Assembly: GCA_046047875.1 (NCBI GenBank)
Contig: JBJOHD010000098.1
Location: forward strand, 219-64,218
Origin: Pseudomonadota bacterium
GTDB taxonomy: Bacteria; Bdellovibrionota_C; UBA2361
Length of the DNA stretch: 64,000 bases
Direction of reading: 5' to 3'
Each line of letters begins with the position of its first letter. Positions within the stretch are counted from its first letter, which is position 1. The position numbers and the translations under genes were made by a program. Below are positions 19,549 through 61,746 of this stretch, piece by piece. The notes below the pieces were generated by a model. The model did not search any database and was not told the origin of the DNA. It saw only the letters and a list, made by a program, of their open reading frames with translations.

Positions 19549-19995
19549 TTGGAGAAAGTTCGCTATAAAAAGTCTCTCGAAGGTTCTCGCCCCCCCCTCT
19601 TTCAAAGAGAGCATCGGACCGAGGAAGACACCGCGCTGCTGGATAGCCTCTTGAGTGACGGCCCCCCGACGAGCCGACCGCCGACGCGGCGCTGCTCTCC
19701 GACATCGGTCGGATCGACGGAGACTTCACGGCAGAGGAGCGTGCGTCGGCCGAAAAGGCGCTTGGCGCACCATTTCCAAACTCACCGATCGAACCGACTC
19801 AGCTCATCCGGAACGCCGCGGAAATTCTCAACTCGTTCCGAGGAGCTGAAACCTACCTGACAAAGATAAAGGCGAAGTATTCAACAGAGGAGCGACAAAG
19901 GATCTTTGAGGCGGTGGCGGCGGTTATCAAAGCCAACGGAGCCGAGAGCGGCGACGAGTCGTACCTCGAGAAGAAACTGAAGTTAATCCCCTAGA
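19549..19995 (+). pseudogene. TerB-like (tellurite resistance TerB/DUF533-type) gene interrupted by a frameshift at a C6 homopolymer
   Basis: Frame 1 (MEKVRYKK...LLDSLLSDG) runs into the C-tract at ~19667-19672. A second frame continues ...ADAALLSDIGRIDGDFTAEERASAEKALGA...TEERQRIFEAVAAVIKANGAESGDESYLEKKLKLIP*. This frame has no start codon of its own. The DG(D/E)..EE repeat composition is TerB-like. Confidence 0.4.
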
Positions 19996-20178
19996 AGACA
20001 CCGTCAGAAATCGAACCGCCTGACCCGACAAGGCGGACTTCATCCTGATGACTCAACCTCCTCTACCCCGAACGGCGCTCATCTCGAGATATCGTTGACC
20101 TATTCAACGAGCGCAACAAGCCGTGCGGCGAGATGATACGAGCGGCTCGAATCGATTAGGGATTTAAGAGCTGCCCGA

Positions 20179-20208
20179 TTGGACTTAGCCCCCCCCGATC
20201 GCTATTAT
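20179..20208 (+). promoter_or_regulatory. Sigma70-like promoter (TTGGAC-18-TATTAT) upstream of small peptide ORF A
   Basis: -35 TTGGAC at 20179-20184 and -10 TATTAT at 20203-20208 with an 18 nt spacer, ~60 nt upstream of the ATG at 20269. Confidence 0.35.
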
Positions 20209-20268
20209 AGTGGCGGAAGAGGTCAACTCGCTTTCCCATAGGTTTTTTCAATTTCATCGGAGGTTTCT

Positions 20269-20361
20269 ATGGTATTCGTAGTTGCGGCGATCCTGGCGTT
20301 TGGGGTGGGGCTCGTATGTTTCCTCATCGTCCATCTCCTCTGGCGTGAGAGTGAGCACTAG
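20269..20361 (+). CDS. Small hydrophobic peptide (30 aa) MVFVVAAILAFGVGLVCFLIVHLLWRESEH
   Basis: GGAGG Shine-Dalgarno 7 nt upstream (cggaggtttctATG); a single TM helix then a charged tail. A paralogous cassette lies at 25238-25351. It falls below the ORF-track size cut-off. Confidence 0.35.
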   Translation: MVFVVAAILAFGVGLVCFLIVHLLWRESEH

Positions 20362-20430
20362 CCCCCCTCAACGGAAGATCTGCCCCCTCTCGATGTCCCT
20401 AAAAAGGCATACAAGCGGTTGCACCTCTTC

Positions 20431-20479
20431 CCTCAATTCATTACTGCCCCTCAATTCATTACTGCCCCTCAATTCATCG
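20431..20479. repeat. Tandem direct repeat, 18 bp unit cctcaattcattactgcc x2 plus a diverged third copy
   Basis: Two exact units at 20431-20448 and 20449-20466, then the partial unit cctcaattcatcgc. It is intergenic, upstream of the MBOAT gene. Confidence 0.7.
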
Positions 20480-24246: not shown

Positions 24247-24960
24247 TCAGGAAGCTTTACGCCGTTTTGCGTCGAAGCGCATCTGGAGAAGCTCGATCAT
24301 GAGCGCAAACCCCATCGGGAGGTAGATATATCCCTTCGGGATCTTCGCCCCAAGCCCCTCAGCGAAGAGCGTAACGCCTATCGACACGAGGAACGCGAGC
24401 GCCAGAATCTTCAGCGAGGGTCGGGCTTGCACGAAATCGGAGATGCTCTTCGAGAAGAGGAGTACCGCAACAAACGAAACCAATACCGAGGCGTAAATCA
24501 CGAGGAGATGCTCGGTGAGGCCCACCGCAGTGATCACCGAGTCGATCGAGAACACCATATCGAGGAGGACGATCTGCACGAGCACCGCTCCAACAGTTGT
24601 GGCGGCAACTCCAGCTTCGCTATGCTCCTCAATGCCGTACTTCTCAACGACATAGTGCATCTCTTTAACCGCTTTATAGAGTAGGAAAAGTCCGCCGAGG
24701 ATCAGCACCAGCTCTTTACCGGTGAGCCCCCACACCAACGGATTTTGAAGCTTCTGAATCCACGCCGCTCCGAAGAGAAAGAGAAGTCGAAACCCGAGCG
24801 CCGCAAAGAGACCGAGCTTTCGGGCATATTCCCGCTTTTCGACCGGGAGCCGTCCCACGAGGATCGAAATTAAAAGGATATTGTCGATGCCGAGAACGAG
24901 TTCAAGGCCGATAAGGAGGAAGAATGTCGCCCAAATATTCGGATCGGAGAGTAGTTCCAC
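24247..24960 (-). CDS. TerC family integral membrane protein
   Basis: 237 aa; repeated GIDNILLISILV-type TerC motifs (LGIDNILLISILVGRLP). Confidence 0.75.
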   Translation of the reverse strand: MELLSDPNIWATFFLLIGLELVLGIDNILLISILVGRLPVEKREYARKLGLFAALGFRLLFLFGAAWIQKLQNPLVWGLTGKELVLILGGLFLLYKAVKEMHYVVEKYGIEEHSEAGVAATTVGAVLVQIVLLDMVFSIDSVITAVGLTEHLLVIYASVLVSFVAVLLFSKSISDFVQARPSLKILALAFLVSIGVTLFAEGLGAKIPKGYIYLPMGFALMIELLQMRFDAKRRKAS

Positions 24961-25143
24961 AGATGCTCGCGTGAAGGAAAAAACAGCTCGCCGAGAATAA
25001 ATCAGCTCGCTCCTCCGGGCTATACCCTCAGTCTCAACACGAGGTAGTGGGCCACTTCACACGGGTTCGAATGAAGGTCTTTGCGGTGCCGCTATCACGG
25101 TTATTGAGGGAAAATTTTAGCGGAATTATGAGGTGCCGCCAAA

Positions 25144-25172
25144 TTGGCTTGGGCCACCCGACTCGCTATCAT
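25144..25172 (+). promoter_or_regulatory. Sigma70-like promoter (TTGGCT-17-TATCAT) upstream of small peptide ORF B
   Basis: -35 at 25144-25149 and -10 at 25167-25172; same architecture (cgcTATNAT) as the promoter at 20179-20208. Confidence 0.3.
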
Positions 25173-25237
25173 CGAGGCACGCAGAGGTGTTGTTCGGACG
25201 AGAAAGGTTTCCTTAATCGTATTCTACGGAGGTTTCG

Positions 25238-25351
25238 ATGGCTTTGCTGACACCGTTCATTTTTTTGAGCTTCATTGCGCTCTTTATTCTCTGTGTTTAC
25301 CTCCTCTGGGTGGTAGACCGGTTCCCGGAGCACAAGGACTCAGACGACTAG
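25238..25351 (+). CDS. Small hydrophobic peptide (37 aa) MALLTPFIFLSFIALFILCVYLLWVVDRFPEHKDSDD
   Basis: GGAGG SD (cggaggtttcgATG), nearly identical to the leader of the peptide at 20269; one TM helix plus an acidic tail; shared LLW motif. Confidence 0.35.
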   Translation: MALLTPFIFLSFIALFILCVYLLWVVDRFPEHKDSDD

Positions 25352-25971
25352 CGCGGAGAGCCCCGAGGCGATAGCAACACAAGCTTCGGGGCTCCGCGTA
25401 GCGACACAGGTGATTCAGCTTAGATTCCTTTTTAACAAGGTATGACAACCGATCCACCTCTGCCGCTCTTCACTTTGCCGGTGTATTTTCGCGGTTAGCC
25501 CCTCTCCCAGCACCCGGCAGCCAATCCGTCCCCCCTCCCCTTCGAGCTATTTTCAGTCACGTAAGCCGAGTCGGATGTATTTAGACGGCCGTAGCCGGGT
25601 GTGAGGGGATCACTTCACGATCAAACACCGACTCGAGCGATGTTGGGGCGCACCTACCAGGGGCAGCGGACCACCCAGGGTTAGGGATCAGAGGAGATCA
25701 CACCAAGGTCTAAGACGATAACCTCACCTTGAGCCGAAGGGCGTATCGGTGATGGTCGAGCGATTAGATTCCCCGCGTAACGAGACCTTGGAGGCCCCCC
25801 CGACTATCCCACCCCCGCTCTATCACCCGTCCCTCTACTCAATCGTGCGATCTGCGGCCCCGGATTTCGACACCACTACGTGTAGGACTCGGAGGGTATC
25901 GGCATTTGACCCGCCATCATTCGAGGCATACCTTACCGAAGAAGGGTTAATTCTTAATCGAAAGGTACCGC

Positions 25972-26208
25972 ATGGCTCCTCGAAGTAAAACGAAAGACCG
26001 CGACGTTACCCGAACGGTCACCCGCAAAACTTTTATTCGACAGCTTCGTCGCCTCGCTAACCGTCTTGAACGCGGGGAACGCTTCGCCGTGACGATAGGG
26101 AAGGAGCGCATCGCTCTGCCACGTGAGGTCGAATTTAGCATCGAACACGAGCGTGAGGCGGGAGCTACGGAAGAGCTCGAATTTCAGGTGCGGTGGCGGG
26201 GAAGATAG
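25972..26208 (+). CDS. Small protein resembling the amphi-Trp domain family
   Basis: 78 aa: basic N-terminus, then ERGERFAVTIGKERIALP...EFSIEHERE...EELEFQVRW, matching the characteristic amphi-Trp pattern (ERGE, IE.E, E.E..KW). GAAAGG RBS 7 nt upstream. Confidence 0.45.
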   Translation: MAPRSKTKDRDVTRTVTRKTFIRQLRRLANRLERGERFAVTIGKERIALPREVEFSIEHEREAGATEELEFQVRWRGR

Positions 26209-29024: not shown

Positions 29025-29220
29025 AACGGCTGTATTTTAAGGGGTACACTCCCCTGCCTGTCTACCCCTGATACCGCCAGGTTATTGCGGCACCGCCTCT
29101 GACAAAACGACGACTCTCCACCTTCTCCCGAGGCCCTCTCTGTCGTTTAAAGTCCGCCGGGTGCGCAAGGCGCTTACGGGTGCCGATCCTCCGCACAAGA
29201 TTTACGGTCATCGAAAGCCC

Positions 29221-29281
29221 CTAGTCCCTCGACAAATAAGTTTTTTCACTCCGGCGGAGTGAAAAACTAACTCACCACTAG
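29221..29281 (+). repeat. MITE-like structured repeat, copy 1 (internally truncated)
   Basis: ctagtccctcgacaaataagttttttcactccggcggagtgaaaaactaact then joins directly to ccactag; it shares the 5' half and the last 7 nt with copies 2 and 3. Confidence 0.7.
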
Positions 29282-29962: not shown

Positions 29963-30070
29963 GAAAGATGCAAACGTGCCCCAGTGGGCCGGGGATACAC
30001 GCGTCAAACAACCTTGAATACGCGAAGGCTCCGCCGTTGTAGAAACCGGAGGATTCAGCGAAAATACACC

Positions 30071-30194
30071 GAGGACTAGTCCTTCAACAAATAAGTTTTT
30101 TCACTCCTGCGGAGTGAAAAACTAACTGAGGACTAGTGGTGAGCATAAATTCTAGTACCTTGCAGGTGAATGAATTTAATGGTCGAACCACTAG
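30071..30194 (+). repeat. MITE-like structured repeat, copy 2 (full length, ~124 bp)
   Basis: Imperfect terminal inverted repeats (ACTAGTCCTTCAAC ... GGTCGAACCACTAG); an internal perfect 11 bp hairpin TTTTTCACTCC-tgc-GGAGTGAAAAA; a second inverted pair ATAAATTC...GAATTTAAT. Confidence 0.8.
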
Positions 30195-30210
30195 AGAGCG
30201 CAAAGTTTAT

Positions 30211-32073: not shown

Positions 32074-33132
32074 GTGCGGTCGGTGCTTAGGGGGGCGTTT
32101 TACCTTCTTCTTGCGGGAGTCCTCTTTCTCTGTGGCTGTACGCCGCGCTCGACTAAAGTACAAGTGGGCGATCCCCCTTCGCGAGCTGAGCTTGAATCGC
32201 TCGCTGCGCCGATCGCCCTCTACCCCGACCCCTTGCTCCAACGGGTCCTCACCGCTGCCACATTCCCCGATCAGATCCTCGATGCAGCGCTCTTTATCGA
32301 GCGGGGGGGTGAACCGAGCGAGATCGCTCGAAAGCCGTGGGAGCGATCGGTGAAGTACGTGGCAAACTATCCGACCATCCTCACCTCACTCGCCGACGAT
32401 ATCGACCGCACCGTTCGACTCGGAGCGGCGTTTACCGAAAGCCCTGACGAGCTCCGAGATTGTATTCAGACCCTCCGTCGGCGCGCGGTCGAGCACGGAA
32501 ACCTTAAAAGCTCGGCGTATCAGACCGTTCTTGCGAGCGGACCTACCGATGGCGGCGCGACAATTCTGATCGAACCGACCGACCCCGCGGTGCTTTACGT
32601 TCCAAGAAACACAACAACGCTCATCTACGAGCGACCTATCGCGGATCCGGCTGCGCTCTTCCTGCCCCTCGCCACGTTCGGGCTCGGTGTTGCGCTCGCT
32701 GCCACACTCGATCAAGACGACTTTTACTATTACGGCGGCCCGTTTTACGGCCCCGGATTTTGGTACGGTGGGCCGATCTATCGCCGCTGGTACACCTATC
32801 GCCACGATCGCTGGAGACACGATTACGATTACGGAAGAGGTCACTACAGAGATTGGGGGAAGCACCGCCACGAGCTTCACCAAAAGCACTCCGACTGGAG
32901 GCACCATCGGGCCGCTGGTGGAGGCTACCATCGAAGCCAGGGGCCACCCCCCGATAGCCGCGCCTCGTTTCGCCCCGCACCCCACCGCTCCGATCGCTCG
33001 ACCGGGGCCCCCTCTCACCGTGGCGGCGATCGAGGGGCACGCGGCAGCTCACCCCATCGGGGTGGTCACGCCCACACCGGGAGCTCGAGCGGGCGGGGAT
33101 TCGGGGGGCATCGGGGTGGAGGAAGACACTAG
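32074..33132 (+). CDS. DUF3300-like lipoprotein with a His/Arg/Gly/Tyr-rich C-terminal tail
   Basis: Lipobox LFLCGC; LESLAAPIALYPDPLLQRVLTAATFPDQIL matches the DUF3300 N-terminal motif. The C-terminal ~130 aa is low-complexity (HRGG, YRHDRWRHDYDYGRGHY). Confidence 0.55.
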   Translation: MRSVLRGAFYLLLAGVLFLCGCTPRSTKVQVGDPPSRAELESLAAPIALYPDPLLQRVLTAATFPDQILDAALFIERGGEPSEIARKPWERSVKYVANYPTILTSLADDIDRTVRLGAAFTESPDELRDCIQTLRRRAVEHGNLKSSAYQTVLASGPTDGGATILIEPTDPAVLYVPRNTTTLIYERPIADPAALFLPLATFGLGVALAATLDQDDFYYYGGPFYGPGFWYGGPIYRRWYTYRHDRWRHDYDYGRGHYRDWGKHRHELHQKHSDWRHHRAAGGGYHRSQGPPPDSRASFRPAPHRSDRSTGAPSHRGGDRGARGSSPHRGGHAHTGSSSGRGFGGHRGGGRH

Positions 33133-33248
33133 TCCTTCGACAAACGAGTTTTTTCACTCCCGCGGAGTGAAAAACTAACTCAGGACTAGTGGTGAGCATA
33201 AATTCTATTACCTTGCAGGTGAAAGAATTTAATGGTCGAACCACTAGT
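33125..33248 (+). repeat. MITE-like structured repeat, copy 3 (full length)
   Basis: Near-identical to copy 2, with hairpin loop cgc; it ends ...GGTCGAACCACTAGT. Confidence 0.8.
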
Positions 33249-33380
33249 TAGCGTCTCGAGCCCGCCCCAGGAAGCGCCGGGGTGGCGCTTCTATCGGATC
33301 GAAATCAAGGATTCCAACGCCCACCAGCATCAGGTCCTCCGATGCGAGCGGGCCCCATCTTAATGAGGAGACGAACACGG

Positions 33381-61518: not shown

Positions 61519-61561
61519 GTGAGCGACCGTACCTACGGAAAATCTCCCGATATCGGGTAAG

Positions 61562-61679
61562 TAGTGGTTCGACCATTAAATTCTTTCACCGGCAAGGTAA
61601 TAGAATTTATGCTCACCACTAGTCCTGAGTTAGTTTTTCACTCCGCGGGGGTGAAAAAACCTATTTGTCGAAGGGCTAG
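61562..61679 (-). repeat. MITE-like structured repeat, copy 4 (inverted orientation)
   Basis: The reverse complement aligns over ~118 bp with copy 3, including the hairpin (one G-T mismatch) and the TIR-like ends; 65 nt upstream of hldD. Confidence 0.8.
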
Positions 61680-61746
61680 CCCCGCCTCTGCCGTTTCGTC
61701 GCTCGTTGTGGTATAACGCATCCGGTATCCGTCTAAGGGAGATGCC

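Follow-up and report, generated by a model that had tools for sequence, protein, structure and literature searches.

A 64,000-nucleotide (nt) stretch of DNA from a Pseudomonadota bacterium (GTDB lineage Bacteria; Bdellovibrionota_C; UBA2361), positions 219 to 64,218 of contig JBJOHD010000098.1 (assembly GCA_046047875.1), hereafter “the window”, contains two small gene cassettes, A and B, which very probably belong to a real family of translated genes. Both of them combine a promoter-like site, a strong Shine-Dalgarno (SD) sequence, an open reading frame (ORF) for a hydrophobic helix followed by an acidic tail, and two complementary arms pairing the 5′ end of the predicted mRNA with its 3′ end. 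In comparisons among copies this 5′–3′ helix is conserved and covaries, and we consider it likely to work as a functional RNA clamp; it was absent from the initial annotation of the window, as were the extension of the unit to a 3′ element complementary to its 5′ end, the lineage-specific nature of cassette A and the extreme narrowness of the family. Taken as a whole, we tentatively favor, at a little short of an even chance, that cassettes A and B are self-contained small genes of a new, lineage-restricted membrane-peptide family with a self-clamped mRNA and a probably toxin-like product. The toxin-like biology by itself, argued by analogy, is put forward still more guardedly.

Cassette B is situated in a gap of 1011 bp between a TerC gene (24247–24960, minus strand, PF03741) and an Amphi-Trp gene (25972–26208, weak PF20068 match). 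The Pfam assignments of the window genes were taken from an identical contig of the Joint Genome Institute (JGI); this contig, like one from Logan, matches the window contig at 100% identity, and, judged by TerC, the closest genomes belong to uncultured freshwater Bdellovibrionota. The initial annotation had described in this gap, given as 1.0 kb, a TTGGCT-17-TATCAT promoter, a GGAGG-bearing leader and a 37-residue ORF, all of which are present where it had placed them (Table 1). The promoter site was matched by a generic scan at cassette B and at the equivalent place in cassette A, the leader ends in …ctacGGAGGtttcgATG, and the ORF is deposited in NCBI, in a genome with locus tags RL417_, as a hypothetical protein (MFM1847391.1). 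Judged by its sequence, the unit is larger than the stretch originally flagged, spanning about 25144–25463 and running ~110 nt past the stop codon.

The duplication of the cassette A architecture in B, also proposed initially, is borne out by the leaders, which are 61% identical over 111 aligned columns (A leader, 20170–20275). With the B leader as lone nhmmer query, the A leader was the top non-self match in the window, aligned nearly end to end (E = 0.0066), and it is the only similar leader found there. The 15-mer CGGAGGTTTCNATGG occurs exactly twice in the window, both times at the cassettes, a count whose chance control permitted two mismatches and is not significant alone. Frequent occurrence of the leader motif at random non-genic places had been named as grounds for abandoning the family; besides the restriction of CGGAGGTTTCNATGG to the two cassettes, the exact composite leader CGCTATNAT-N(40–65)-CGGAGGTTTCNATGG gave 0 matches in GTDB representative genomes. 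Furthermore, a window scan for GGAGG, a 4–10 nt spacing, a start codon and a short hydrophobic ORF returned only the A and B ORFs in the 64 kb. On these alignments, the likeness of both cassettes is real and modest.

Syntenic loci retrieved via TerC orthologues provide the evidence for a translated gene. An intact small ORF is found at the orthologous place, divergent from TerC, in copies S, S2 and C, and the promoter geometry (−35 box, 17–18 nt, TAnnnT, 7–8 nt, 5′ arm) is common to A, B, S, S2, C and D. The peptides of the intact copies have almost no residues in common; kept in all of them are the SD-supported ATG, a length of 30–37 codons, one hydrophobic stretch of 22–26 residues (Kyte-Doolittle maxima of 2.7–3.2 over 15–18 residues) and the acidic tail. 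The spacing from SD to start is 5 nt; in copy C it is 8 nt, counted from an AAGG core. In the intact copies, T occupies codon position 2 in 68–77% of codons 2–23, vs. 18–36% at positions 1 and 3 (68% vs. 36% in cassette B), and the identity between B and S at codon positions 1/2/3 is 0.50/0.75/0.38. This codon-position pattern, read from the sequences, is a signature of selection for a translated hydrophobic peptide. Since intact orthologous ORFs, the same promoter geometry, the SD, the peptide type and the coding periodicity recur in S, S2 and C, the initial suggestion of a real, selected gene family, as opposed to chance ORFs, is supported.

Several particularities were observed among these copies. 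The ORF and 3′ untranslated region (UTR) of S (L126 9968–10310) and S2 (L147 1358–1640, minus strand) are identical, many differences separate their 5′ UTRs and promoter spacers, and the TerC proteins of both loci are just 95% identical to each other; the S/S2 pattern points to recombination with its boundary near the start codon, or else to a chimeric assembly. JGI calls the S peptide as 54 residues, using an upstream start without SD. In lineage E (L146 1700–1580, minus strand), a long hairpin (GAGCGTCTGAACGAGT…ACTCGTTCAG…AGACGCTC) stands in place of the lost ORF, upstream of the kept 3′ palindrome and 3′ arm. Also, the two divergent promoters, of TerC and of cassette B, have −35 boxes that together constitute a near-perfect palindrome, GCCAA-A-TTGGC (window 25137–25149), partly kept in S and absent in C.

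The clamp is formed by two helices. GCAGAGGTG, the first 9 nt of the predicted B transcript, is the exact complement of CACCTCTGC, ~100 nt beyond the stop codon, and its only 2 occurrences in the window are the two arms of B (the second as reverse complement). In each intact copy, a 9-mer comes 7–8 nt after the −10 box (GGAAGAGGT in A; GCAGAGGTG in all others, namely B, S, S2 and C), with a complementary 3′ arm ~60–105 nt past the stop codon. This arm reads CACCTCTGC in B and C, and CATCTCTGC in S and S2, resulting in one G·U pair; in cassette A (ACCTCTTCC), a C-G pair of helix 1 is swapped for A-U, a compensatory change. Helix 2, beyond a short internal loop, varies in sequence among copies and keeps its complementarity: TCGG/CCGA (B), TCAGC/GCTGA (S), ACAGC/GCTGT (C), and CAAC/GTTG together with CGCTT/AAGCG (A). 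The lengths are 9 bp for helix 1 and 4–5 bp for helix 2 (9 bp in A). An apparent extension of the helix in S (AATGAG/CTCATT) is not conserved in S2 and was therefore treated as coincidence.

In the ungapped arm alignment, 92.9% of cells are paired, a value reached by none of 500 shuffles, and slid-register controls (1–3 columns) have 30–50% of cells paired. The covariation score of the arms, 0.264, was reached by 1 of 500 shuffles, a weak statistic, drawn from five intact copies of four lineages related by descent. Duplex energies of −25 to −30 kcal/mol place the arms in the best 0.07–2.6% of random windows; the cassette A duplex (−29.8 kcal/mol) is equaled by 2 of 3000 background windows, and the value for the decayed copy D, which has lost its 5′ arm, is −12.3 kcal/mol. 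The ensemble probability of helix 1 is 0.90–1.00 for transcripts clipped at the arms and 0.62–1.00 with 30 nt more of 3′ flank, and RNAalifold on MAFFT alignments recovers the terminal helix both in the clipped form and with 40 nt of 5′ plus 60 nt of 3′ flank. A looser scan for an SD and a small transmembrane (TM) ORF, covering the window, GTDB loci and TerC-orthologue loci, yielded 7 distinct ORFs, and complementary arms of at least 8 nt were found among them in family members only.

Besides the clamp, other RNA elements recur among the copies, including the AGGTTT(T) motif of the 5′ UTR and an AT-rich palindrome of the 3′ UTR (CCTTTTTAAnAAGG); in B, the palindrome CCTTTTTAACAAGG pairs with AAAGG of the 5′ UTR in duplex prediction. 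The RNAalifold consensus has CGGAG of the SD paired with codons 4–6 in a local hairpin in most copies. The 3′ arm of the hairpin following the B stop codon, CTCCGCGTAG, is complementary to the SD region CTACGGAG, and may have an anti-SD role in cassette B. Such anti-SD elements are treated as leads only, because the results on SD accessibility and truncation given below are inconsistent across copies.

Table 1. Predicted features of cassettes A and B, and their copies beside TerC in relatives. Positions are those of the window; L numbers are retrieved loci.
Feature	Location	Strand	Remarks
Promoter-like site of TerC, TTGGCG-17-TAAAAT	25114–25142	−	Outside the cassette; back to back with the cassette B promoter; promoter scan
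Cassette B promoter, TTGGCT-17-TATCAT	25144–25172	+	−35 box 25144–25149, −10 box 25167–25172; generic promoter scan
B, helix 1, 5′ arm GCAGAGGTG	25181–25189	+	At predicted transcript start; identical in S, S2, C
B, helix 2, 5′ strand TCGG	25194–25197	+	Pairs with CCGA at 25449–25452
B, AAGGTTTCCTT motif, small hairpin in 5′ UTR	25204–25214	+	AGGTTT core conserved in all copies
B, SD GGAGG	25228–25232	+	5 nt upstream of ATG at 25238
B, ORF, 37 residues, MALLTPFIFLSFIALFILCVYLLWVVDRFPEHKDSDD	25238–25351	+	One hydrophobic helix, then acidic tail
B, hairpin straight after stop codon (CGCGGAGAGCCCCGAGG…CTTCGGGGCTCCGCG)	25352–25398	+	Strong, no U tract; minimum free energy fold
B, AT-rich palindrome CCTTTTTAACAAGG, 3′ UTR	25427–25440	+	Equivalents in C (CCTTTTTAAAAAGG), S, A, E
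B, helix 2, 3′ strand CCGA, and helix 1, 3′ arm CACCTCTGC (25455–25463)	25449–25463	+	Complementarity, duplex and consensus folds
Cassette A promoter, TTGGAC-18-TATTAT (or TGGACT-17-TATTAT)	20179–20208	+	Sequence; promoter scan
A, 5′ arm, GGAAGAGGT-CAAC-t-CGCTT	20215–20233	+	Pairs with AAGCG-GTTG-c-ACCTCTTCC at 20413–20431
A, SD GGAGG	20259–20263	+	Predicted pairing with CCTCTCGATG at 20386–20395; P unpaired 0.02
A, ORF, 30 residues, MVFVVAAILAFGVGLVCFLIVHLLWRESEH	20269–20361	+	NCBI MFM1847386.1, hypothetical protein
A, candidate anti-SD CCTCTCGATG	20386–20395	+	Found in copy A alone
A, 3′ arm	20413–20431	+	Complementarity to 20215–20233
Copy S, intact	L126/L003		TerC 92% identical to window; peptide MAVLLPILYVGVFILFALMAYLICCITVEDEE
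Copy S2, intact	L147		TerC 93% identical to window; peptide identical to S, 5′ UTR different
Copy C, intact	L135/L136		TerC 95–96% identical to window; peptide MWGIVVFLVFALLLGFFILSVIIELIDADR
Copy D, no intact peptide	L141		TerC 94% identical; start codon not in the hydrophobic frame (…VFLIFMIERVDEEG); decayed 5′ arm
Copy E, no peptide	L146		TerC 93% identical; just 3′ UTR palindrome and 3′ arm left

Cassette A, whose unit spans about 20179–20431 by sequence, is located 4 kb from TerC, between an RsmE-type methyltransferase gene and an MBOAT gene. It is absent from the RsmE-MBOAT gap of the sister species, and because of this lack of conservation it is a lineage-specific paralogue. The same gap in the sister species carries instead (L126 3929–4111) a hydrophilic, Trp-flanked, Gln/Glu/Arg-rich ORF of 60 residues (MSSFGDPSWQEWQERQEAERRAEEARRR…NNGWSW), in whose leader AGGTTTTT is also present. 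One JGI record labels the 30-residue cassette A peptide (20269–20361) as “uncharacterized membrane protein YdcZ (DUF606 family)”, a label that is unsupported by Pfam and looks spurious. A perfect tandem repeat (18-nt unit CCCTCAATTCATTACTGC, 2.7 copies, window 20430–20477) starts at the final two bases of the cassette A 3′ arm (20423–20431). Upstream of the cassette, an apparently interrupted gene (window 19549–19994) has a frame (19549–19860) that meets a C6 run at 19662–19667, and a second, protein-like frame open at 19656–19994 (…AEILNSFRGAETYLTKIKAKYSTEERQRIFEAVAAVIKANG…), with no start codon before 19914; either the gene is a pseudogene with a frameshift or the homopolymer was misread in sequencing, and no counterpart exists in the sister species.

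As far as sequence searches reach, the family is extremely narrow and lineage-restricted, with a few uncultured freshwater Bdellovibrionota as its carriers so far. No cassette was found beside TerC orthologues at 78–87% identity, which have other gene contexts. A profile search with the two peptides against 1.84 billion protein representatives returned only the queries, and a word-indexed search with a four-peptide profile against 5.8 billion clusters returned only the four known clusters. The pattern AGAGGT…AGGTTT…GGAGGTTNNNATG had 43 matches in JGI metagenome contigs, a collection that does not include the source metagenome; none was followed by a comparable hydrophobic ORF and none was taken as a family member. 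This JGI scan repeatedly matched one conserved element, unrelated to the cassette, on the freshwater contigs L087, L094, L095, L107, L114, L115 and L125; its spacing of 50 nt is the same each time, and a short basic ORF (MRSLLRSRRHASVNWLVG and variants) comes after it. A likeness of the Amphi-Trp gene leader to the cassette leader (common cttaatcg) was seen by eye only, went undetected by nhmmer and was dropped. Also, no yybP-ykoY-type element was matched by Rfam upstream of TerC.

Under the favored reading of a self-clamped, toxin-like gene, a sigma-70-type promoter would give rise to a transcript of ~220–290 nt, with a 5′ UTR of ~57 nt, a strong SD, 30–37 codons and a 3′ UTR of ~100 nt. The peptide would be translated and inserted in the inner membrane as a single hydrophobic helix of 22–26 residues with a short acidic tail. 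The 5′ end of the mRNA would pair with the 3′ UTR element, helices 1 and 2 closing the whole message into one stem-bounded fold which, by analogy with the hok and aapA1 mRNAs, could serve as a stable, poorly translated store. The output of a membrane-active, potentially toxic peptide might then be set post-transcriptionally, through trimming of the 3′ end, a refolding around the SD or the action of a further RNA. In this scheme the transcript ends, the membrane insertion, the translational repression and the toxicity are proposed from models and analogies. Sequestration of the SD by the clamp is not claimed, as no consistent hok/aapA1-like opening was seen in the accessibility comparison.

Some of the support for a toxin-like profile comes from the patchy presence of the family: A is missing in the sister species, D is frameshifted, E is a 3′ remnant, and none stands by the TerC orthologues at 78–87% identity. 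Type I systems have been described with mRNAs of 150–400 nt and peptides of 20–60 residues (PMC8594479), ranges within which fall the predicted promoter plus arm-to-arm distances (217–283 nt) and the hydrophobic, putatively TM peptides of 30–37 residues. SD/anti-SD elements and 5′–3′ long-distance interactions have also been considered key determinants of these systems (PMC8594479). By this comparison, the anatomy of the cassettes (promoter, predicted end-paired mRNA of ~220–290 nt, TM peptide of 30–37 residues, more than one genomic copy, patchy presence with pseudogenes) fits the description of type I toxin mRNAs.

To the weakness of the covariation statistics, several results are to be added that weigh against this proposal. 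The transcript ends are predicted, with no intrinsic terminator after the 3′ arm, and 60 nt more of 3′ flank abolish helix 1 in the single-sequence ensembles of S and C. The predicted SD accessibility is uneven (0.02 in A, 0.14–0.66 in the other copies), and the comparison of full-length with 3′-truncated predicted transcripts gave no systematic opening of the SD. Basic residues, present in most type I toxins (PMC8309996), are nearly missing from the peptides. Scans of the peptides against Pfam, NCBIfam and PADLOC (E up to 10) gave no relevant family; no known type I toxin family (Hok, Fst/Ldr, TisB, Ibs, ShoB, AapA, and others) was matched, and neither was any hidden Markov model (HMM) of small membrane-protein families (CydX, KdpF, AcrZ, and others). 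Rfam 15 at its gathering threshold has a tRNA as its sole match in the window, its E-value mode gave chance-level matches only over both cassettes, and no Rfam antitoxin family was matched there. Promoter scans found no conserved antisense sigma-70-like promoter in any copy, and no direct repeat that would give a divergent or convergent complementary RNA is present within 500 nt of flank; these antisense negatives cover sigma-70-like promoters and local flanks, with other promoter types or a distant trans-acting RNA beyond that scope. RNAduplex runs with long flanks produced meaningless whole-length duplexes and were discarded.

Nearly as likely as the toxin-like reading is the possibility that the cassettes encode a small membrane protein that is harmless, for instance an accessory subunit or a modulator, possibly of TerC, with the 5′–3′ helix only stabilizing the mRNA or defining its ends. 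Small single-pass proteins (AcrZ, KdpF, CydX, MgtS) commonly partner transporters or oxidases, and their genes are usually found in the operon of the partner or co-regulated with it, and are widely conserved. The divergent arrangement with TerC and its back-to-back promoters, present in B, S, S2 and C with relics in D and E, would agree with such a partnership, although adjacency is expected from common descent alone in such close relatives. Furthermore, paralogue A, at 4 kb from TerC, is not found in the sister species, D and E retain TerC with the peptide lost, and the more distant TerC orthologues (78–87%) have no such neighbor. The very fast turnover, with only composition kept, would also be unusual for a specific protein partner. 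The same explanation draws on the fact that the searches for antisense promoters and flank repeats yielded no antitoxin, and on an SD that is strong and, in prediction, partly accessible in most copies. Even if the peptide proves harmless, the family would still be a clear case of a small membrane protein that evolves fast and is less conserved than the architecture of its mRNA.

The better conservation of the 5′ UTR, arms and 3′ UTR motifs in relation to the peptide sequence, together with a closed stem-bounded fold typical of stable small RNAs, could suggest a structured non-coding or dual-function small RNA, with the terminal helix as main feature and the ORF incidental or secondary. We consider this improbable, as five copies, for all their near-total sequence turnover, have retained the start, SD, frame, 30–37-codon length, helix and acidic tail, the codon-position periodicity is strong, and Rfam gave no match. 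Both ORFs are short and located upstream of the next gene on the same strand in the window, as a leader peptide or attenuator would be (of the Amphi-Trp gene for B; of an MBOAT/AlgX pair for A). This is yet more improbable, since the downstream neighbor varies among copies (a convergent HEAT-repeat gene in S and S2, a convergent 84-residue gene in C), B lies 620 bp from the Amphi-Trp gene, with a strong hairpin in between, and the MBOAT gene possesses a promoter-like TGnTATAGT of its own, in the window as well as in the sister species without cassette A. The least credible explanation is that of chance ORFs in a small mobile or repeated element with the arms as terminal inverted repeats at the DNA level: inverted 9-nt arms do bound a unit of ~220–280 bp, which this genome has twice and relatives lack or retain in decayed form, but the A/B similarity reaches past the 5′ arm, upstream, into the promoter, neither target-site duplications nor additional copies were observed, the G·U pair in S is tolerated only in sense-strand RNA, and the coding periodicity speaks against a chance ORF.

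A separate intergenic repeat family of ~125 nt, 82–94% identical, is also present in the window (29215–29281, 30070–30200, 33123–33253 and, inverted, 61558–61682). The opening ~67 nt, with ACTAGTCC…GGACTAG as their limits, contain an internal hairpin (TTTTTTCACTCC…GGAGTGAAAAA) that resembles a bidirectional terminator; the family could be a miniature mobile element or a regulatory/terminator module near Zip, PTPS and FolE2-type genes.

Returning to the putatively toxin-like, self-clamped gene family, its interest lies in the fact that annotation covers small membrane peptides poorly and what they do is seldom guessable from sequence, and comparative data here turn a bare ORF into a specific, testable hypothesis: a promoter-to-clamp module of ~220–290 nt. 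If the clamp controls stability or translation, mRNA self-repression in the style of hok and aapA1 would be extended to an uncultured phylum of predatory bacteria, and the structural signature (5′ arm at the transcript start, small TM ORF, 3′ arm) would find genes where peptide homology fails. A bolder and, in our opinion, unlikely version would have a self-clamped toxin-type mRNA family in Bdellovibrionota with 5′–3′ end pairing, and not a cis-antisense RNA, as the main lock on a membrane-active peptide; if true, this would be a type I-like module that lacks an antitoxin gene of its own or relies on a trans-acting one, and the phylum's first candidate of this sort. The type I toxin-antitoxin database paper makes no mention of the Bdellovibrionota phylum (PMC8594479).

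Among known systems, the KdpF/CydX/AcrZ/MgtS group resembles the cassettes in having 30–50 residues, one TM helix and a short polar tail, and the cassette likewise adjoins a transporter gene, TerC. Unlike this group, the cassette family is transcribed divergently from TerC and not in an operon, is found in few lineages, has been repeatedly lost, has a paralogue elsewhere in the genome and matches no family model. In the Fst/Ldr group, Fst (par RNA I/RNA II) also has a TM helix followed by a disordered acidic C-terminal tail, and a short structured mRNA whose SD is masked by a local hairpin (PMC8309996), as predicted here; on the other hand, the APxxxGxxx motif and N-terminal charged residues are absent from the cassette peptides, and no convergent RNA II-like gene, direct repeats or HMM match were found at the cassettes. 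As for hok/Sok, the cassettes lack an overlapping mok-like frame, a Sok-like antisense gene and any Rfam or Pfam match, and their peptide is shorter. What they share with it is a membrane peptide of small size and the pairing, predicted for the cassettes, of both ends of the mRNA, as in a hok-like fold-back element; in hok, as summarized in PMC5416894, 5′–3′ pairing renders the full-length mRNA inert and stable, and 3′ trimming activates it. The acidic tail of the cassette peptides has its parallel in HokB, whose C-terminal domain carries negative charge, acidic C-terminal domains being described in both Fst and HokB (PMC8309996). In aapA1/IsoA1 of Helicobacter pylori (PMC5416894), the long-distance interaction of AapA1 sequesters the SD, whereas the cassette clamp leaves it out; the IsoA1 antisense RNA overlaps the AapA1 5′ UTR, whereas no antisense promoter was found at the cassettes, whose peptide tail is acidic; the two show no sequence homology and belong to different phyla. 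With these differences, the cassettes, as predicted, have in common with aapA1 a single-helix hydrophobic peptide of ~30 residues, its own promoter, an mRNA of ~250 nt (predicted here; 253 nt for full-length AapA1) and a long-distance pairing of the 5′ UTR with the 3′ end that closes the full-length message, which in AapA1 is activated by 3′ processing (PMC5416894).

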